64,000 bases of DNA from Ostreococcus lucimarinus (lineage: Eukaryota). Numbering within the stretch: position 1 is the first letter of the stretch; every line of letters starts with the position of its first letter. The notes below the pieces were generated by a model. The model searched no databases and was not told the origin of the DNA. It saw only the letters and a program-made list of their open reading frames with translations. The DNA lies in assembly GCA_000092065.1 (NCBI GenBank), contig CP000581.1. One strand, 5' to 3'. Of this stretch, positions 6,108 to 38,536 are shown piece after piece. A program made the translations under genes and the position numbers.

Positions 6108-8195
6108 TTAAAGCTTGGAGACGCCGAAGTTACCGCGGCTCAGCTTTGGTTGCAAGAGCTCGGTGTATCCGGGTGGCGTGTGCTTTCTGTTGAACGGCGC
6201 CGCTTGTACTTCTTCGTACAGTCGGCGGTAGACGTCTCCATCCTTCGCACCGAGCGCGGAGTTTAAGAAATAGTCGTGCAGTCCAAAAGAGTCAACGAGC
6301 GCTGCCGCATCTGGTCGAATTTCAGACAAAAGTTTAAAGATTTCTTGTCGAATCTCGGCCGCTTGTTCGCCGTCGATGTGCCCGTCTTCCAAAAACTCAC
6401 CCATCGTGTCATCCATACCACACAAACCGTGAAGGCAGACGAGGCGATGCAACACGTTTAACGTTTCCGCACTCACTCGAGATCGAGTCTCGTCGTACGC
6501 GAGGACGAAATTATACATGACGACGAACGCGCAATGCGCCTTCGCCGCGCCGATCCACTGTACCATGTGTACTCGCATCGCTTCGTCAGGCGACAAATCG
6601 CCCGTCACCTTGGAGGCTTCCGTGACTAACCGCCACGCCCGATGGGCGTACGCATCGAGGATGGCCTTTTCATCGCGTAAACTTGCGCCGAGAGCAAGCG
6701 CGCTCCGAGAACTTGCACCGTCGAGATAACGGAGCGCGTCCACAGGTGGTTGGCCATTGAGCATTTTTCGGTGCGCCTTTAACAAATACCGAGCGGTTTG
6801 TAAGCAAAGCACGTTGTTGTCACCTTCATACGTCACGTTGGGGGCGTAGGTGGCTAGTGTAGTGCCGAATCCCGCTAGGTTCATGTAGCCGTGACCACCG
6901 CACGTTAGACGACATGCTTCGATGGCATCCTTCGTCGCCCACGAACAGTACGCCTTGAGCCCGCTCGATGTGGCGTGAAGCTCTGGAAGGGCGGAGAAGT
7001 CCTTTTTCTCGCGGGAGTCCCTCTGGAACTCAAAATACATACGGCGCATGTAATCAGACGTGCAGTGAAAGGCAAATGCCTTAGCGAGAATGGGAAACAG
7101 CGTTCGCTGGCTGTGCTGATAATCGATAACTTGGCACTCCATCCCCGTCACCTCGTCGGCGTTCGATTGCCGGCGAACTAAATTGTATCGAATCGCAATA
7201 GTGACGGCTTTCTTCATGTAAAGCGCGGCGTTCATAACGATGTCGGAGCGAATGAAGACCATCGTACCGTACGAAACTTTCGCCACCGGCGCTGGCACGT
7301 ACGTACCGTCGCGTTCAACCTTGGAGTGACCCATCAACATTGCTCGGCGTTGGACGCGAACGTGATCAAATCTCAGAAACCCGTTGTCGACGGCGTTGTA
7401 GCCCATCTTGTTACCGATATCACCTATCGTGCATCCTGGTAACGGCTCATGCGTCTTATTATCGCGAATTTGCACCACGAACGGATGCACGCCATGATCG
7501 ACGCCTTTGGTGAACAATCGAGCCATCACGACGGCGTGTGTGGACGTCTTTCCCAATCCGCCCGGCCACCATTTTGTGCTCGTCAACGTCGGCGAGTGCA
7601 CGACGAACTCCTCGCGCTCTTCATCATAAGTCGCCGTCGTTTCTAGCCCTCTCAAGTAGGTTCCATGTCCGAGCTCCGTCTGCGCGTACGTCCCCACGCA
7701 CTCCAGCTTTACGCACTTTGGAATCCAATACTTTCGCTGTTCCTCGTCCCCTTGCCCTTGAATTGTGGGAATGAACATTCCTAGGTGTAAGTCCAGCCCC
7801 CCGGGTTCGTCGATCAACTCCCGCATGATTCGCGCCACGGCGATGGGTTCTTTCTCATTCATGCTCGCCACCGCGCTCGGCAGCGCCAAGTACATTCGCA
7901 GCGTGCGCTCGTACAGTTCGTCCCGCTCGTCAAAGTACTTGCCTCGCTTACTGAACGCCTCGTTCGTCGTCATCACCGACGCGATTCGCTGACGCAATTT
8001 ATAATTATCCTTCCCTCCCGCGAGCAAGACCTCGAGTTCGCGCGAGTTGAACGACGCCCGCGCGCGCTCGAGTCGCAAATCTTCCTTCGGGTCGCTCGTG
8101 CTCGCCGCGATGACGTCGCTCGATGGTTCGACGAGCGCGCGTGTGTGCGCGTCCACGACGCGGTGGCCGCGACCATCGCGCGAGTCGTCGAGCAT
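6108..8195 (-). CDS. ACX: peroxisomal acyl-CoA oxidase
   Basis: The full ACOX architecture is present (N-terminal, middle and C-terminal acyl-CoA dehydrogenase/oxidase domains, including 'TELGHGTYLRGLET' and 'CGGHGY'). The C-terminal tripeptide is SKL, a PTS1 signal. Confidence 0.85.
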   Translation of the reverse strand: MLDDSRDGRGHRVVDAHTRALVEPSSDVIAASTSDPKEDLRLERARASFNSRELEVLLAGGKDNYKLRQRIASVMTTNEAFSKRGKYFDERDELYERTLRMYLALPSAVASMNEKEPIAVARIMRELIDEPGGLDLHLGMFIPTIQGQGDEEQRKYWIPKCVKLECVGTYAQTELGHGTYLRGLETTATYDEEREEFVVHSPTLTSTKWWPGGLGKTSTHAVVMARLFTKGVDHGVHPFVVQIRDNKTHEPLPGCTIGDIGNKMGYNAVDNGFLRFDHVRVQRRAMLMGHSKVERDGTYVPAPVAKVSYGTMVFIRSDIVMNAALYMKKAVTIAIRYNLVRRQSNADEVTGMECQVIDYQHSQRTLFPILAKAFAFHCTSDYMRRMYFEFQRDSREKKDFSALPELHATSSGLKAYCSWATKDAIEACRLTCGGHGYMNLAGFGTTLATYAPNVTYEGDNNVLCLQTARYLLKAHRKMLNGQPPVDALRYLDGASSRSALALGASLRDEKAILDAYAHRAWRLVTEASKVTGDLSPDEAMRVHMVQWIGAAKAHCAFVVMYNFVLAYDETRSRVSAETLNVLHRLVCLHGLCGMDDTMGEFLEDGHIDGEQAAEIRQEIFKLLSEIRPDAAALVDSFGLHDYFLNSALGAKDGDVYRRLYEEVQAAPFNRKHTPPGYTELLQPKLSRGNFGVSKL

Positions 8196-29406: not shown

Positions 29407-29430
29407 GTGGAATCGCGACGGCGCGCGCGC

Positions 29431-29462
<32 letters not shown>

Positions 29463-30363
29463 GATGATGACGCGCGGAATCGCGACGCGTCGACCGCCGT
29501 CGCGCGCGAACGCGCTCGCCGCGCGCGCGTCGACGACGCTGCGAGGCGACCGCGCGGTCGGGCGGCGCGGGGGGACGCGCGAAGACGCGCGGCGATGGAC
29601 GCGCGGCGATGGACGCGCGCGACGAGGACGCGCGAGGACGCGAGCGATGCCCGCGGTGAAGGCGCTCGTGCAAGTCGATCTCGGGCCGTCCGTCGTCCTG
29701 GGATCGTCGCTCATGATTAGCGCGATTGCGCTGTACCAGGTGCGGGCGGCGAGGCCGGAGGTGTCGAGGGACAAGGACGTGTTCTTTAGCTCTATAGGAT
29801 TGCTGTGCGGGGGGATTTTGATCTTTCAGGGATGGCGATTGGATCCGTTGATGCTGTTCGGGCAATTACTCACGACTGCCACCGCGGTGGCGTTCGCGAC
29901 GGAGACGATTTCGCTCAGGCAAGAGTTGCTCGACGTCGAGGACGCGGGGGACTCGGGGACGCGCGGGCGACCGGGACGAGGGCAGCGAGGGCGACGATCG
30001 GGACGGGTTCGGTCGTTACCGCCGGTCAATGACCGCAATGTTGAGTCGAGGGTAGATTACGGCGCGCGCAGAGGGTATTCGCGCGAGAATGACGAGGAAT
30101 CAGAAGACGCGTTTTACGCCGCGACGGCGGCGAGCTACGGAAACCGTCGCGCCGCGAGGTCTTCAACCGGCGCGCGCCGCGGCGACGACGGCGATTTCTA
30201 CGACATCGACGCCGACGTAAGCGATAGTTTTGACGGCGAACAGTCCGATGACGACGCGAGTCCGTATCGCGATGGTTTCCGCGCCGCCGCGGGCGACGCG
30301 TCGTCGACGCCGCGGCCCTCGAGCGGCAAGAATTGGGAAAACGACGACTGGGATTTCGTGTAA
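29407..30363 (+). CDS. ycf66: nuclear-encoded Ycf66-family protein
   Basis: 'DLGPSVVLGSSLMISAIALYQVRAARPEVSRDKDVFFSSIGLLCGGILIFQGWRLDPLMLFGQ' matches the conserved Ycf66 N-terminal domain. An upstream in-frame Ala/Arg/Thr-rich stretch is a possible transit peptide. The acidic C-terminal tail is low-complexity. Confidence 0.65.
29438..29470. repeat. (GAC)n microsatellite
   Basis: 'gacgacgacgacgacgacgacgacgatgatgac', within the 5' region of the Ycf66 gene. Confidence 0.85.
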
Positions 30364-30713: not shown

Positions 30714-32132
30714 ATGGCGACGGCGCCGAGTAAGATTGTGGAGAAGAAAGACTTCCCAGCGGGGCTCGGGGTTTTAGTCGTCGACGATGACTTGTTGTGC
30801 CTGAAAGTCGTGGAGAAGATGCTGAAGGCGTGCAAGTACAAAGGTGCGACCGATGGCGCGCGAGCGTTGCGCCCCGACGTTGAGACGACGCGGCGACGGA
30901 AGACACGGCGACGCGAACGCGAACGCGGCGGCGAACGATGCGAAGGAATACGTTCGATCGTGCGTGGGCGCGCGATGGACGCGCGAACGCTCGCGCGAGG
31001 CGCGCGAGGCGTGCGATTGGGAATCGGGCCCTCATCGGAACTCACCCTGGGACCCAACCCTGGACGAGCTAAGGGTTGACAAATCGGACGGGATATGACA
31101 CGACGAGCGACGCGACGAAACGAACGCGACGACTGACGAAATGATGACGATGCCGTTGAACGCACAGTCACCGCGTGTTCCACCGCCAAGACTGCGCTGG
31201 AGATTCTGCGAACGCGAAAGGAAGAGTTTGACATCGTGCTGAGCGACGTGCACATGCCAGACATGGATGGGTTCAAGCTGTTGGAGATCATTCAGTTTGA
31301 ACTCGCTTTACCCGTTCTCATGATGAGTGCGAACTCGGACTCGAGCGTGGTATTGAGAGGGATCATTCACGGGGCGGTAGACTATTTGTTGAAGCCCGTT
31401 CGAATCGAGGAGTTGCGTAATATTTGGCAACACGTCGTTCGACGCGACTACTCGTCGGCGAAGAGCTCGGGATCGGAAGACGTGGAGGCTTCGTCGCCGA
31501 GCAAGCGTGCGAAAACGTCTGGGTCGAATTCGAAGAGCGAAGAGGTCGATCGGACGGCAAGCGAGATGAGTTCGGGCAAAGCGAGGAAGAAACCGACGGG
31601 TAAGAAGGGAGGCAAGAGCGTCAAGGAAGCGGAAAAGAAGGACGTCGTGGATAACTCGAACTCAAAGAAGCCTCGAGTGGTGTGGAGCGCTGAGCTCCAC
31701 GCGCAGTTCGTGACCGCAGTGAATCAACTTGGAATCGATAAAGCTGTGCCAAAACGTATTTTAGATCTCATGGGGGTTCAAGGTTTGACGAGAGAAAACG
31801 TCGCGAGTCACTTGCAAAAGTATCGACTATACCTCAAGCGTTTGCAAGGAAACGATGCCCGCGGCGGCGGCAACGCCTCTTCGACTGGGGCCCGCTCAAA
31901 GGACGGACAGTTGAGCAATAACGGCTCCAAGATTTCCACGAGCACGTTCTTAGGGGATGATACCATCTTTCACGGCGGCGATTTGAGTCTCCCCGGGGAC
32001 CTTCTCGTTGACGATCCGACGTTCGATCCATCTTTGCTCGCGCCTTTGGATTTAGAAAAGGTGGGCAAAGGCGACGTTCTCGGCGTCGATGCGTCGGACA
32101 ACATGCTGAACTTTTTCTTTGAAGGAGATTAG
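30714..32132 (+). CDS. type-B (GARP/Myb) two-component response regulator, two exons
   Basis: Exon 1 (30714-30843) gives 'VLVVDDD...CKYK'. Exon 2 (31168-32132) gives 'VTACSTAK...SDVHMPDMDGF...DYLLKP' (the D-D-K receiver) and a GARP motif 'VASHLQKYRLYLKRL'. The exons are joined by a GT...AG intron. The ORF track splits this gene into 30714-31079 and 31236-32132, the latter starting at a GTG. Confidence 0.75.
30844..31167 (+). other. spliceosomal intron (324 nt) in the response-regulator gene
   Basis: The donor is 'AAAg|gtgcga' and the acceptor 'gcacag|TCACC'. Joining them restores ...CKYK-VTACSTAK..., which is colinear with plant ARR-B receivers. Confidence 0.7.
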
Positions 32133-32369: not shown

Positions 32370-34979
32370 TTGGCGTCGTCCCATCGGACTCGCGCCGTCT
32401 TCGTCCTCGGCGTCTTCGTCCCTCCCCCGGGGGAACGGTGTCGGTCGGCATTCCTCGGCATGCGCGCGTGGGCCGTCGCGCGACGAGGATTCATCGCATC
32501 GCACGCGCGCGTGAGTGTCACCATGACGACGCACGCGATCGCACAATCGCTCGCGCACGCGCGGGACGCGCATCTCACGCCGCGTCATTCGTCGCATCTT
32601 CGACGCGCGCGCGAGTCGTTACGGATGCGAGTGACGATTGGGCGCGGGGCGAATGCGTTCGAGACGCCCAGGACGACGCACGCGCGGACTCGAGCGAGCG
32701 AACGAACGACGACGGCGATGACGTCATCACAATCGCAATCGCCGCCGAGCGCGCACGTGTTGACGGCGTACGCGGTGCGAGGCTCGTCGGGGACGCTGCC
32801 GGCGCTGCGCGTCGTCCCGCTCGAGCTGTCGGACGACGCCGGGAAGGCGTGCGTGCGCGCGCTGTGGAGCGCGGTGCGGTTACTGCGGGAGACGAACACG
32901 GATCGGGGAGGGAAATCGATGACGCCATTTTCAAACGAAGGCGCGTGCGAACTCTTCGCGCAGGCTGGAGTGCGAGACGAGGGGGACGTGCTGCGGTACG
33001 GCGTCGCGCGCACGAACGCGAAGGCGCTCGCGGAGAAGGCGCTCGGGCGGGGATCGACGAGGGAAGTCAAGGAGGGCGCGGCTTTTGATTTAGTGCCAAG
33101 ATCGAATGATTTCGAGTCGCGGGTGGCGTACGGAGAGATCCTTCGCGAAGCGCTGTATGAGCACACGCTGAGTGTGGCAGGCGAGCTCTTCGACGTCTCG
33201 CGTTTGGGACGAAGCGGCGTGTTGCTCACGGCAAAGTTGACGCGTGGGTCATGGGCGTGGACGCCCGTGAGCGATGCCGTGGCGGTTTTAGATCAGTACA
33301 CGATAGATATCGAGATTGGGGCGGAGGATTCGGCGCAGATACTATGCACACTCGGGCACGAGCTGCGGAGTCCGCTGAGCGTTCGTCAAATCTTGGACGA
33401 TCCGTCGTTGATGGATCTCCCGGAGGGTGCCGAAGTCGTCGCGTTGGGCGGACCGCATCTTCAAGGACAACTTTCGTACACAAATATCGGCGGGAAGACG
33501 ATCGGTGAGGCTCGAGAGGAGTTAAAAGGGGAAAGTCTTCTAAGCTATCATCGCGCGCGCTACCCGGCACGGATTGAATTGTTAGCCAACGCGCGCGATG
33601 ACGACGACGCAGTGCAGCTCGTGCAACCGGGGCGACCGCCGAGTGCATACCCAGCCGAGCTTCTTTCACCCGTGATTAAGATGAACATACTCGACGCAAC
33701 CACGCGCGAAGCAGTTTCAGAGACGTGTTCTGGAACGCCAGCGGATTTGCAACGTCGGATCTCAGCCGTTCGATCGATGCTAGGTCAACCGTTTACACCA
33801 CTTTTGCAAGTCGACGAAAAGATGCAAAGGCTCGCCGCGGCGCCACCGCCGGCATCAGCGAACGATGACGTTCGTCGAGGAAGTATGAAAACTGGACCGG
33901 CGGTCATGCCTTCGGCGTCTACGATGACGACGATGGAGAAAGCGCTTCCAACGCTGACTTTACTGCTCGGTGCGTCGACGAAGACGGACGAGACGGCGGC
34001 GACGAATTACATCTCACGGCTCACGGCTGACGTAGAAGCCGCGATGAGAGGGTGGAGCGCGAGAGAAGAAGACATCGATGCGATAAAGGGCGATATCGCA
34101 AACGCGGTGGTGTGCTACTACGACGATAGCTCGCTGAATGCCACACGTTCGGCGTTCATAAAGGTTTTTCGAGAGAATATGTCGTCGTCGTACTTGGTTG
34201 CACTCTCTGAGACGAAGCAATTTGTCGAGGCGGGCGCTCGTCAAGCCGGGTCACGAGTGTCGAATGAGTCCACGGTGAGATGGGCCGCGGATGACTCAGA
34301 CGCGAGACGACTGTGTTTTTCGCTCATCGCTCGACGTGGAGGTCAAGCAACGGTATGCAAAGATCGAATCATCGCCGAAGATGCTCACATCGTTGGCGCC
34401 GGCGTCAAGTCAGGCTTTCCTGTCGTCGACTCGTACGGTCGAGTCATTGCTCGACAATTCGGCGCTCCTTCTGGCGCGACAGTCACTGGTGCGGTGCGCA
34501 CAGCAATTGACCTTAGACTAAAAATGATAGCCATTCACCACGCCGGTGAATCCGACGTCGAGGACGTCAGGGCGGCGATGAATTTAGCGCGCGAAAACAA
34601 CGTGACGATTTCAACCGTCGTCGACGTGGTCGACGCCGACTTCGGTCGTGTTCTCGGTTGGAGCAAACAAGCGGGTGCGGTGACGCAACCTGATCGTGGT
34701 TTCTGGTCGCCTTTAGGTACGGTCGGCGACGACGCCGTCGTCGTCACCACGGGCATGGAGTCCAATCTTGTTCGAGGTGTCTCCAGACCGCTTCGGCTTC
34801 GAATCCGTGCCGGCGACGACGGCATCGAATCGGCGGTGGATCAAATACTCAAGCTCTCCGTCATTGACTGTCACTTCACACCATCGACGAGTTCATTTCG
34901 ATTACCTTTGACGCTGAGGCCGAAGAGCGAGAACAACTTGGAAATCATTCTCGTCGCCGCCGCGACGTCGACGTTGTAA
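32370..34979 (+). CDS. large hypothetical protein with no recognisable family
   Basis: The 869-aa ORF has balanced, coding-like composition after an Arg/Ala/Thr-rich N-terminus. No motif could be assigned. Confidence 0.5.
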   Translation: MASSHRTRAVFVLGVFVPPPGERCRSAFLGMRAWAVARRGFIASHARVSVTMTTHAIAQSLAHARDAHLTPRHSSHLRRARESLRMRVTIGRGANAFETPRTTHARTRASERTTTAMTSSQSQSPPSAHVLTAYAVRGSSGTLPALRVVPLELSDDAGKACVRALWSAVRLLRETNTDRGGKSMTPFSNEGACELFAQAGVRDEGDVLRYGVARTNAKALAEKALGRGSTREVKEGAAFDLVPRSNDFESRVAYGEILREALYEHTLSVAGELFDVSRLGRSGVLLTAKLTRGSWAWTPVSDAVAVLDQYTIDIEIGAEDSAQILCTLGHELRSPLSVRQILDDPSLMDLPEGAEVVALGGPHLQGQLSYTNIGGKTIGEAREELKGESLLSYHRARYPARIELLANARDDDDAVQLVQPGRPPSAYPAELLSPVIKMNILDATTREAVSETCSGTPADLQRRISAVRSMLGQPFTPLLQVDEKMQRLAAAPPPASANDDVRRGSMKTGPAVMPSASTMTTMEKALPTLTLLLGASTKTDETAATNYISRLTADVEAAMRGWSAREEDIDAIKGDIANAVVCYYDDSSLNATRSAFIKVFRENMSSSYLVALSETKQFVEAGARQAGSRVSNESTVRWAADDSDARRLCFSLIARRGGQATVCKDRIIAEDAHIVGAGVKSGFPVVDSYGRVIARQFGAPSGATVTGAVRTAIDLRLKMIAIHHAGESDVEDVRAAMNLARENNVTISTVVDVVDADFGRVLGWSKQAGAVTQPDRGFWSPLGTVGDDAVVVTTGMESNLVRGVSRPLRLRIRAGDDGIESAVDQILKLSVIDCHFTPSTSSFRLPLTLRPKSENNLEIILVAAATSTL

Positions 34980-35034
34980 CAAAACAGCCTCCCTGGATTA
35001 GACCTCATTGCGCGTCCGCGTGCGTCGTCGCGAG

Positions 35035-36012
35035 ATGAACGACGATGTTGCGGGCGTCGCCACAAACGACACACGACATCAGCGTCCACCGAAGATTAAA
35101 TTGCGGCTAAACATTCCCGCGCGCGACGACGATGACGAGAAAGGACGCGCTGGAACGACGAGGAAACGAACGACGACCACGACCACGACCACGACCACGA
35201 CGTCGCGAGAAAACTCCATGAGCATGTCCATGGGAGCGTCCATGTCTTTGGGAGAGCACGGCGACGAACACGGCGACGAAGCGACGCAAGGGATGTCGTT
35301 CCTCTCGCCTCCGACTGGACGCCAAAAAAGGCACACCCACAGCCCGGCGACGACACCGATGTCGGTCGGAACGTCGCCAAGAATATCGTCGAAACGACCA
35401 AGAATGAGTAATGATTGGATTGAGGATGAAGTGCACCCGTCGATGGTCATGGGGACGCCGGGGAGCGGTGGCACGGCAGCGAAGCGATTGACATCGGAGA
35501 TCATGGCGAGCAACTTGTCGCAGCTCTTGAGCGTGTCGCCGATGTCGACAAATAACGATGGTGGTACTGCGTGCGCAGTTGATGAATCATGGACGTCGTC
35601 GAGCGCACCGATGTCATTTGGTGAAACCGTGAAGTCGTCAACGTCGCTGCTGAAGCGCACGCTGTCAGGGACGTACGGAGATACCACGGGCATGTTGATG
35701 CTGACGGCACCCCAGCTCGCCAAGTCACCAACAGAAAGCATGATGGTGAGTCATCACGGCGGCGGTGGTCTGCCTCCGTCATCACCGTCGGATCCTTCGC
35801 CAATTCACGATTTACGGAAAGCCGCACTCATGCGTTCGAGATTACTGAACGTTTCATCCGCTTTGCCGCCGCGAGCGACGCCTTCAAGCACTCGAGGGAA
35901 TCACTTGCAGCGTGGGTTCGTGCATGAACGTCCTCCGATTCACAGTTTAGGCGTTGGTACGGTTGATGTCGGTGACGAGACAGAGAGCGGAGAGAGGAAC
36001 GTAGCTAAGTAG
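35035..36012 (+). CDS. Ser/Thr-rich low-complexity hypothetical protein
   Basis: The ~325-aa ORF is disordered-looking, with poly-T from (acgacc)n. It may be a real nuclear protein or only partly coding. Confidence 0.3.
   Translation: MNDDVAGVATNDTRHQRPPKIKLRLNIPARDDDDEKGRAGTTRKRTTTTTTTTTTTSRENSMSMSMGASMSLGEHGDEHGDEATQGMSFLSPPTGRQKRHTHSPATTPMSVGTSPRISSKRPRMSNDWIEDEVHPSMVMGTPGSGGTAAKRLTSEIMASNLSQLLSVSPMSTNNDGGTACAVDESWTSSSAPMSFGETVKSSTSLLKRTLSGTYGDTTGMLMLTAPQLAKSPTESMMVSHHGGGGLPPSSPSDPSPIHDLRKAALMRSRLLNVSSALPPRATPSSTRGNHLQRGFVHERPPIHSLGVGTVDVGDETESGERNVAK
35168..35202. repeat. (ACGACC)n microsatellite
   Basis: 'cgacgaccacgaccacgaccacgaccacgacg'. Confidence 0.85.
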
Positions 36013-37296: not shown

Positions 37297-37695
37297 CTAA
37301 AATATCGGTTCAGCCTCGAACCCTCCCTCCACCACGGTCTCCACGAGCGCCGGGAGCTTGGTGACGCCGTCCACCACGCTCTCGCAATCGATCGACACGC
37401 GCACAATCTTCGTCGCCAAATCGACGTCCACCGCCGTCACCTTGACCCCTTTATCGTTGTTCATCAGTTTCGTCGTCACGCTCTCCACGCACCCGTCGCA
37501 CATCATCCCCTCAACCTTCAGCTCCACCACCACGGGCTCGCTCGACGCCGACGCCGCGACCGACGCGGGCGTCGCTCTCGGCGTCGCGGCTTTGCGCGGC
37601 GACCGCGTCGCGCGACGCTTGGACGCGGCGGGCGTCGAGGGCGTCGAGGGCGTCGACGTCGACGTCGACGTCGACGTCGCCTTCGAACACGACAT
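37297..37695 (-). CDS. heavy-metal-associated (HMA) copper chaperone, probably organellar
   Basis: 'VVELKVEGMMCDGCVESVTTKL...' is an ATX1/CCH-type MxCxxC βαββαβ domain. An (ST)n/Ala/Arg-rich N-terminus is present. The start is trimmed to 'MSCSK' (the ORF track starts at 37998). Confidence 0.7.
   Translation of the reverse strand: MSCSKATSTSTSTSTPSTPSTPAASKRRATRSPRKAATPRATPASVAASASSEPVVVELKVEGMMCDGCVESVTTKLMNNDKGVKVTAVDVDLATKIVRVSIDCESVVDGVTKLPALVETVVEGGFEAEPIF
37632..37680. repeat. (GGCGTCGAG)2 + (GTCGAC)4.5 palindromic hexamer repeat
   Basis: 'ggcgtcgagggcgtcgagggcgtcgacgtcgacgtcgacgtcgacgtcg'. On the minus strand it encodes (ST)n in the chaperone transit region. Confidence 0.85.
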
Positions 37696-37840
37696 CGCGC
37701 CGGTTCGCGGTGTGACGCCGCGACGGATAAAATCCGTCGCGCGCGCGGCGATCGCCCGATCGTTCCTCCGAGAAACGAATCGGCCAAATGCGAGAATCGT
37801 CACACGCGAACGCGTCCGACGACACCGATCGCGCGCATCG

Positions 37841-38536
37841 ATGAATACGAAACGCGCGTCGCGCACGATCGTCTGCCTCGTCCTCGGCATCTTTCTCGAC
37901 GCCCTCGGCGGTGCGCGCGCGCAGGCGACGCGCGCGCGCCAGAGAGCGCCCGAGACGGCGTGCGCGCCAATCGCCCCCGTGCAGCCGTTCAACCTCACCG
38001 AGTACGTCGATCGAGAGTGGTACGTGGTGGCACAAAAACCGACGTCGTACCAGCCGCGTCGCGATCTGTTTTGCGTGCGAGCGAATTACACGCTCGTGGA
38101 TGCGCAGACGATTTCAATTTGGAACACGGCGAGGAGAGACGGCGTCTCGGGACGCGATAGAAATGCCCGAGGGTTGTTTAAGCTCCGAGGAATCGTGGAA
38201 GACGTCGAAACTCCATCAAAACTCGTCGTTGGTTTGAACTTTTTACCATCGTTCACCTATGGTCCGTACTGGGTCGTCGCCACGGACACAACACCGGAAT
38301 CGGACGAGTTTGCGGAGCGCGGCTACTCGTGGGCCATCATTAGCGGCGGGCCGCTGACGACACCGAGAGGCGATGAAGGGTTGTGTGAGCCATCCGGCGG
38401 ACTTTGGTTGTTCGTGCGCGATCCGCTCGTTTCCAAAAATGTTGTGGATCAGATAAAAGCGACCGCTCGAGAGCTCGGGATCGACACAAGCGTACTTTTA
38501 CCAGTCGACCAAGAAGGGTGCACGTATCCGCGTTGA
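37841..38536 (+). CDS. lipocalin (TIL/CHL/ApoD-like) with a signal peptide
   Basis: SCR1 'PFNLTEYVDREWYVVAQKP' matches the lipocalin motif (FDL.RYMG.WYEIA). SCR2 'YWVVATDTTPESDEFAERGYSWAI' is present. The N-terminal signal is 'MNTKRASRTIVCLVLGIFLDALGGARA'. The start is trimmed from 37358. Confidence 0.75.
   Translation: MNTKRASRTIVCLVLGIFLDALGGARAQATRARQRAPETACAPIAPVQPFNLTEYVDREWYVVAQKPTSYQPRRDLFCVRANYTLVDAQTISIWNTARRDGVSGRDRNARGLFKLRGIVEDVETPSKLVVGLNFLPSFTYGPYWVVATDTTPESDEFAERGYSWAIISGGPLTTPRGDEGLCEPSGGLWLFVRDPLVSKNVVDQIKATARELGIDTSVLLPVDQEGCTYPR

Follow-up and report, generated by a model that had tools for sequence, protein, structure and literature searches.

The 64,000-nucleotide stretch of Ostreococcus lucimarinus DNA analysed here in its whole length (GenBank assembly GCA_000092065.1, contig CP000581.1; hereafter, the window) carries on its plus strand an uninterrupted open reading frame (ORF) of 869 codons that runs from position 32370 to a TAA stop at 34977-34979, and the question raised by this locus is which kind of protein such a frame encodes. 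An earlier interpretation of the letters only (the sequence-only reading) had seen in it no recognisable domain or family. This central claim is wrong, as a family profile, the PADLOC hidden Markov models (HMMs), hhalign and Foldseek all identify an Argonaute, and the gene is real, lineage-restricted and unannotated. On the grounds of alignments and of a structure model, the ORF product is predicted to be a complete long Argonaute (N-L1-PAZ-L2-MID-PIWI) belonging to a lineage similar to the prokaryotic Argonautes (pAgos), and we consider it very probable that the protein has the Argonaute fold, is catalytically inactive and is allied to the pAgos.

The failure to recognise the family is understandable from the silence of Pfam-A and NCBIfam, which returned nothing meaningful either for the single protein or for all 15 members of its family; the Pfam models ArgoN, ArgoL1, PAZ, ArgoMid and Piwi did not match the window protein at E ≤ 1. 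The observation that no segment matches a known family stands therefore for these two collections, and it falls for profile, defence-HMM and fold searches. A single-sequence phmmer search of the PDB gave a sub-threshold Argonaute match (E = 0.6) aligning the C-terminal 'RLPLTLR', which was taken as a lead only. With the profile of the 15-member family, the same database yielded CpAgo (9jh8, E = 3.3e-9), PliAgo (7r8f, 6e-8), CbAgo (6qzk, 2e-7) and AaAgo (1yvu, 4e-6), matched over profile positions 595-771 corresponding to PIWI, and no eukaryotic AGO with E < 10. The PADLOC HMMs recognised the single sequence at residues 665-798 (residue numbers are those of an 818-residue model), with PprPIWI at E = 4e-17 and five further pAgo models, and hhalign of the algal family against 21 pAgo-like proteins gave a probability of 99.96% and E = 5e-39 across 575 columns, spanning residues 163-795 from L1 through PIWI. 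Foldseek with an AlphaFold2 model (mean predicted local distance difference test, pLDDT, of 75), a check that the sequence-only reading had itself proposed, retrieved prokaryotic Argonautes in a full-length comparison, CpAgo (2e-24) being followed by PliAgo, CbAgo, KmAgo and TtAgo and then by hAgo1 (3e-20). The protein has thus the parts of a long four-domain Argonaute, namely a PIWI domain with RNase H fold, a MID domain preceding it, a PAZ domain, and an N domain with the linkers L1 and L2. Their positions in the window, with approximate domain boundaries, are listed below together with the conserved motifs, P0032 being the nearest match outside the family (family profile E = 3e-42, PAZ through PIWI).

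32754..33368, plus strand: N domain and linker L1, residues ~78-282
33369..33677, plus strand: PAZ domain, residues ~283-385, the most conserved part of the protein
33435-33455, plus strand: invariant PAZ motif VVALGGP
33534-33572, plus strand: invariant PAZ motif SLLSYHRxRYPxR
33645-33665, plus strand: invariant PAZ motif AYPAELL
33678..33947, plus strand: linker L2, residues ~386-475, with LQRR..R..LGQPF..EKMxRL and GPA common to P0032
33948..34352, plus strand: MID domain, residues ~476-610, with E569, R573, W587 and R604 at the Y-K-Q-K positions of the comparators
34353..34955, plus strand: PIWI domain (RNase H fold), residues ~611-811, from the PDB profile, PADLOC and the alignments
34944-34955, plus strand: conserved hydrophobic C-terminal IILV

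The most invariant residues of the family are found in PAZ and L2 (VVALGGP, SLLxYHRxRYxxR, AYPAELL, LQRR..R..LGQPF and GPA), a distribution that is unusual for an Argonaute, and many of them are common to P0032. The C-terminal tail that follows 'RLPxTL' is ~15-20 residues shorter than in the comparators and ends in a conserved hydrophobic xxLV; in other Argonautes the hydrophobic C-terminal end reaches the MID pocket.

Is this Argonaute able to cut? In Argonautes the PAZ domain holds the 3′ end of the guide, the MID domain holds its 5′ end and PIWI is an RNase H-type slicer. We aligned the algal family with 21 pAgo-like comparators by MAFFT and tabulated the catalytic sites for 13 algal members. 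The tetrad D-E-D-D (DEDD) is kept in 21 of 21 comparators, and neither the first Asp nor the Glu finger is kept in any of the 13 algal members, which have at the four positions G, A or S; G, A or S (one gap); A, E, D or L; and variable residues, respectively. In the window protein the four positions read as follows.

34401-34403, plus strand: first Asp (D1) replaced by G627
34461-34463, plus strand: Glu finger replaced by G647
34542-34544, plus strand: second Asp (D2) replaced by A674, in 'HHAG' (comparators 'HRDG')
34926-34928, plus strand: third Asp (D3) replaced by S802

The HMMER alignments to CpAgo and PliAgo gave the same equivalences (HRDG versus HHAG, GIDV versus GAGV), and the DEDX signature of slicers (X being D, H, N or K) is therefore absent from the window protein. 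Since the tetrad is lost and no alternative conserved acidic cluster is visible in the family alignments, the residues indicate that the protein is almost certainly not a slicer. A still-active nuclease with a non-canonical catalytic constellation could be imagined from the Asp that some Micromonas-like members have at the third tetrad position (HYDG or HHDG) and from two nearly invariant acidic residues of PIWI, D636 and D701; however, the latter align with structural positions that are conserved in the DEDD comparators (the VxD..G turn and the VEV.K strand), the fourth tetrad position is unconserved, and nothing acidic compensates for the first Asp and the Glu finger missing in all 13 members, so that we consider such an activity highly improbable.

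The Y-K-Q-K residues of the MID 5′-phosphate pocket, kept in most comparators, read E-R-W/R-variable in the algal family, with the E and the R conserved. The Y/R/H-K-Q-K pattern of Argonautes using 5′-phosphorylated guides is thus absent, the MID alignment being approximate at this point (the hhalign and MAFFT versions are a few columns apart), and a remodelled 5′-end pocket is possible.

As for the gene itself, its coding nature had been asserted from the length and composition of the frame, and this is confirmed. At the base composition of the window the probability of a stop is 0.038 per codon, and open frames of 869 codons are expected by chance at ~2e-10 (six frames, 64 kb); the GC content at third codon positions (GC3, 0.66) exceeds that at second positions (GC2, 0.52), as coding sequence would show; and a low ratio of nonsynonymous to synonymous substitution rates (dN/dS) and a conserved synteny, both described below, point in the same direction. 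The two peptides quoted in the sequence-only reading are both located inside the frame. The 869-residue count begins at a TTG, a start of the bacterial code that is unusable in a eukaryote; being an artefact of bacterial rules, it imposes caution on this length. In-frame ATGs are present at 32460 (839 residues), 32523 (818 residues), 32625 (784 residues) and 32718 (753 residues). The "predicted protein" XP_001415509.1 / ABO93801.1 of O. lucimarinus CCE9901 (753 residues, start at 32718) matches the end of the ORF exactly, which establishes the window as O. lucimarinus nuclear DNA, and the O. tauri reference model XP_003083583.2 (747 residues) begins at the Met equivalent to 32718. The most conservative gene model is consequently 32718..34979.

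32370..34979, plus strand: whole open frame, 869 codons from TTG plus the TAA stop
32370..32717, plus strand: basic R/A/S/T-rich 5′ extension, with ATGs at 32460, 32523 and 32625, dN/dS 1.16 and pLDDT <30
32718..34979, plus strand: annotated coding sequence (XP_001415509.1, 753 residues), exact ORF suffix, beginning at the O. tauri equivalent Met

Public annotations name the protein "predicted protein", "hypothetical protein" or "Ribonuclease H-like domain"; the last was automatically given to the orthologue of O. tauri RCC4221, is compatible with PIWI and leaves the family unnamed. In IMG, the Bathycoccus-like orthologues (P0022 cluster) are labelled 'ElaB/YqjD/DUF883 family membrane-anchored ribosome-binding protein'; this name seems to have been transferred spuriously, low-complexity segments being the probable cause.

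The Arg/Ala/Thr-rich N-terminus had been interpreted as a possible organellar presequence, which would make of the protein a chloroplast- or mitochondrion-targeted Argonaute acting on organellar nucleic acids. All the long, far-upstream gene calls of the family do start with 30-160 residues that are basic, rich in Ser/Thr/Ala and poor in acidic residues, and in several GC-rich (Micromonas-like) orthologues R-x-F-[AS]-[AS] motifs resembling mitochondrial processing sites directly precede the conserved block. However, the annotated starts of both O. lucimarinus (753 residues) and O. tauri (747 residues) are located ~12 residues ahead of that block, the leaders cannot be aligned between lineages, and the dN/dS of the leader is 1.16, i.e., ~1.2 (66 codons from two Ostreococcus-like orthologues, a small sample), versus 0.17 for the body of the protein. 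Residues 1-77 are disordered in the AlphaFold2 model (pLDDT <30), and an R/A/S/T-rich composition likewise arises from the translation of GC-rich non-coding DNA. The presequence is thus not supported; translation of 32370..32717 is uncertain, and the segment is probably a 5′ untranslated region or a weakly constrained leader. Because ~145 codons remain open upstream of the 32718 ATG, which is mildly unexpected (chance ~0.4% at 0.038 stops per codon), we retain organelle targeting as an explanation, considering it quite unlikely.

A word-based search returned 19 relatives, of which the O. tauri proteins share 62% identity with the window protein and the distant ones 28-37%. Distant relatives are encoded on contigs of 66% and 48.5% GC, which keep a Myb/response-regulator gene upstream and an HMA-domain gene downstream; by GC content and synteny these contigs fit Micromonas-like and Bathycoccus-like genomes, respectively. 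Compared with each other, two related Ostreococcus-like orthologues have a dN/dS of 0.17 in the conserved body, 0.04 in the PAZ block and 0.08 in the N domain, MID and PIWI evolving faster than these last two (0.22-0.28). Purifying selection on the gene is therefore strong, above all on PAZ. Ostreococcus and its Bathycoccus-/Micromonas-like relatives carry it in the nucleus as one functional copy that is inherited vertically; a pseudogene or decaying relic is rejected on the dN/dS of the body and on the conserved synteny. The suggestion of a lineage-specific protein is correct at the level of plain sequence similarity, which is limited to the Mamiellales-like lineage.

Regarding the neighbourhood, the Argonaute locus is flanked by an ORF for a Ycf66_N-like membrane protein (29407-30363, plus strand) and by an HMA ORF ('MMCDGC'; 37297-37998, minus strand), and their recurrence near the orthologues in contigs L001 and L003, respectively, supports the conservation of synteny. 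The immediate upstream neighbour (30714-32132, plus strand) is a type-B response regulator with REC and GARP/Myb ('SHLQKYR') domains, a plant-lineage gene. Its REC domain is interrupted: one part begins at ~30714 ('VLVVDDDLLCLKVVEKMLKACKYK') and the other at ~31180, both in one frame but separated by stop codons, which indicates an intron of roughly 300-350 nucleotides. On the orthologous contig L005, gene calling has left out the first exon. Downstream, ~30-55 nucleotides past the Argonaute stop and on the same strand, an S/T-rich low-complexity ORF (35008-36012, plus strand) shows a weak low-complexity similarity (E = 5e-5) to the gene (6277-7296) that comes after the orthologue in Bathycoccus-like contig L003, and it has no counterpart at the equivalent position in the Micromonas-like contig L001. 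A functional link between this gene and the Argonaute was considered and is not established, since the similarity is weak and the position is not kept in L001.

Where does the algal family come from? Searched exhaustively with the family profile, 1.84 billion representatives contained 133 proteins with E ≤ 1e-3. The 20 hits outside the family that we checked are mostly pAgo-like proteins with a Pfam Piwi match only, including one short pAgo fused to SIR2, and none of these 20 matches the ArgoN, L1 or Mid models specific for eukaryotic Argonautes (eAgos). The nearest one, P0032, is a singleton in a 5.8-billion-protein collection and retrieved only itself in a word-based search. It lies in the context of a bacterial defence island: on its contig (L004, 550-10986, 68% GC) an overlapping same-strand row of genes comprises an N6/N4 DNA methyltransferase (1045 residues), a 1066-residue protein, the DEDD-intact pAgo and an OLD-family AAA_15/TOPRIM nuclease. 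This row may represent an undescribed pAgo-containing defence island.

P0049 (L007, 2071-4236) and P0075 (L009, 4067-6232) belong to an abundant marine-metagenome clade of proteins of ~720 residues with an intact DEDD, and P0075-type proteins are found in the assemblies of uncultured marine eukaryotes GCA_977009385.1 and GCA_014466295.1. The neighbours of P0075 on its contig carry eukaryote-specific domains (NSRP1_N, ARL2_Bind_BART, histone-fold and Far-17a), which indicates that a pAgo-like lineage resides in other marine eukaryotes, and the clade looks like a putatively catalytically competent pAgo-like Argonaute of a compact-genome marine eukaryote. In P0113 (L008, 1347-3900, 64% GC) PIWI continues in other frames ('VDVTR' ... 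'KKGEEV' ... 'LQRDG') past apparent introns, with D, E and D kept; this points to a eukaryotic gene with introns that belongs to the same lineage. Six fragments (P0107, P0062, P0126, P0079, P0116 and P0121) match the PAZ/L2 profile of the family only, with 'SLLxYN/H...PPQ[IL]LEPVW' motifs; in P0107 the N-terminus carries a GRF zinc finger, a weak Pfam match (E = 0.005) that stays under the gathering cutoff, and P0062 has two DUF5710 repeats and a Q/H/P-rich linker. These proteins may be Argonautes of the same lineage fused to extra nucleic-acid-binding modules.

In a bootstrapped neighbour-joining tree of 575 columns, built without eAgo sequences, the algal family was monophyletic in 100% of bootstraps and sister to (P0032,(P0049,P0075)) with 62% bootstrap. 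The algal family is more similar to pAgo-like proteins than to the canonical eukaryotic AGO/PIWI. In our reading, marine eukaryotes acquired a pAgo-like lineage, for which horizontal transfer from bacteria is the simplest route, the direction and the number of transfers not being established, and catalysis appears to have been lost on the branch leading to the Ostreococcus/Bathycoccus/Micromonas-like group. As the nearest relatives are DEDD-intact, inactivation of the algal family appears to be independent of that of the long-B pAgos. A scan of IMG/VR viral contigs with the family alignment found no relative, and hence no evidence for a prasinovirus or giant-virus copy, and in the species-representative genomes of GTDB a pattern scan based on the alignment of P0032, P0049 and P0075 gave no confirmed relative.

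What could such a protein do? Slicer-dead Argonautes occur elsewhere, as the long-B pAgos such as RsAgo and the human AGO1/3/4, and act by occlusion or recruitment. Here constraint is strongest on PAZ, the MID pocket is positively charged and apparently modified, and the slicer residues are missing. The most economical proposal for such a protein is a non-cutting binder loaded with a guide, one that by analogy we put forward only tentatively. The protein would load a short nucleic-acid guide, with PAZ at its 3′ end and the modified MID pocket, with its conserved Glu and Arg, at its 5′ end; it would bind complementary RNA or DNA without cutting it; and it would act through occlusion or through the recruitment of other factors, as slicer-dead Argonautes do elsewhere. 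Since Dicer has been reported absent from these algae, guides would arise independently of it, possibly from degradation products as in prokaryotes.

Several points weigh against this proposal. The predicted template modelling score (pTM) of the AlphaFold2 model is 0.48, which makes the relative domain placement unreliable. O. lucimarinus and O. tauri have a short, non-conserved extension past the hydrophobic C-terminal end. The loss of Y-K-Q-K may mean that guide anchoring is altered or lost. The faster evolution of MID and PIWI relative to N and PAZ, the reverse of what is typical of Argonautes, might reflect a function centred on PAZ/L2 as opposed to classical guide-target pairing. No co-conserved effector gene was found at the window locus or on the related algal contigs. 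Finally, all that is said of the protein beyond its fold and its residues is inferred. An Argonaute-fold relic that has a structural or scaffolding role and does not recognise nucleic acids through a guide would have a precedent in Med13 of the Mediator kinase module, in which an inactive PIWI-like fold serves protein-protein interactions; we regard this alternative as unlikely. Taken as a whole, the explanation that we favour, a complete, slicer-dead pAgo-like Argonaute, seems to us likely; non-cleaving, guide-dependent binding is its most probable function, with the tentative standing given above.

A broader scenario can be drawn, which is rather speculative and which we would not bet on. 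Mamiellales picoalgae, which are textbook cases of RNAi loss, would run a Dicer-independent, prokaryotic-style Argonaute pathway, in which a horizontally acquired slicer-dead pAgo-like protein loads small RNAs or DNAs derived from degradation and silences by binding or by recruiting host factors, with prasinovirus or other foreign DNA and organellar or nuclear transcripts as candidate targets. It would be part of a wider, undescribed pAgo-like clade of marine eukaryotes, in which some members are DEDD-active and some seem to carry a fused GRF zinc finger or DUF5710 module.

O. tauri and O. lucimarinus have been reported to be without Dicer and Argonaute (PMC4014436), and a 2025 survey of the superfamily described the Argonaute sequences of prokaryotes and those of eukaryotes as strictly separate (PMC12477606). 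The conserved, selected prokaryotic-type Argonaute of these minimal eukaryotes qualifies both statements. In a 2024 study that applied pAgo HMMs to EukProt, >98% of eAgos fell in one clade, with occasional horizontal gene transfer (PMC11291487). The present family is a further example of pAgo-like proteins that are resident in the nuclear genomes of eukaryotes. Our searches of the full-text literature outside subscription journals brought up no Argonaute-like protein from Ostreococcus, Micromonas, Bathycoccus or Mamiellophyceae, nor did those on 'PprPIWI' or on pAgos in algae bring up this algal protein. The gene encodes a slicer-dead pAgo-like variant, apparently a new one, of a well-known family in organisms that were thought to have none. 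O. tauri offers a genetically tractable system for the role of a slicer-dead Argonaute in a cell without Dicer, and, more generally, Mamiellales genes with no Pfam hit can conceal highly diverged members of well-known families.

With respect to known systems, the protein differs from the canonical eukaryotic AGO/PIWI, whose Pfam domains are undetected in it; its best sequence and fold matches are instead of prokaryotic type and, in the tree described above, it groups with P0032, P0049 and P0075. Med13, whose nucleic-acid channel is highly divergent (PMC12477606), is much larger and a weaker match, with no sequence relationship to the algal protein detected, and a Med13-like identity was rejected on fold scores far below those of the pAgos. 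RsAgo of Rhodobacter sphaeroides, a long-B pAgo, matches the algal protein less well than the long-A structures do, and the algal protein, inactive by its residues, has no co-encoded effector of the long-B kind (nuclease, SIR2 or membrane protein). The best sequence and fold matches are the long-A pAgos (CbAgo, CpAgo, CtAgo, TtAgo, KmAgo and PliAgo) and the PprPIWI model, with which the algal protein has in common the N-L1-PAZ-L2-MID-PIWI order, a length of ~720-750 residues and the absence of eAgo-specific insertions. Unlike the long-A pAgos, which belong to bacterial or archaeal genomes and often to defence islands, it is encoded by a nuclear gene of O. lucimarinus with conserved eukaryotic neighbours and no defence island, it has lost DEDD, its residues at the Y-K-Q-K positions are changed and its C-terminal tail is the shorter one described above. 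The nearest relatives, P0032 and the P0049/P0075 clade, are detected by Pfam Piwi and keep D-E-D-D and mostly Y/R-K-Q-K, unlike the algal family, which shares with these three proteins the PAZ motifs (SLLxYH and PPQ/PAELL), the L2 motifs and the K/RxGGQA motif of MID.

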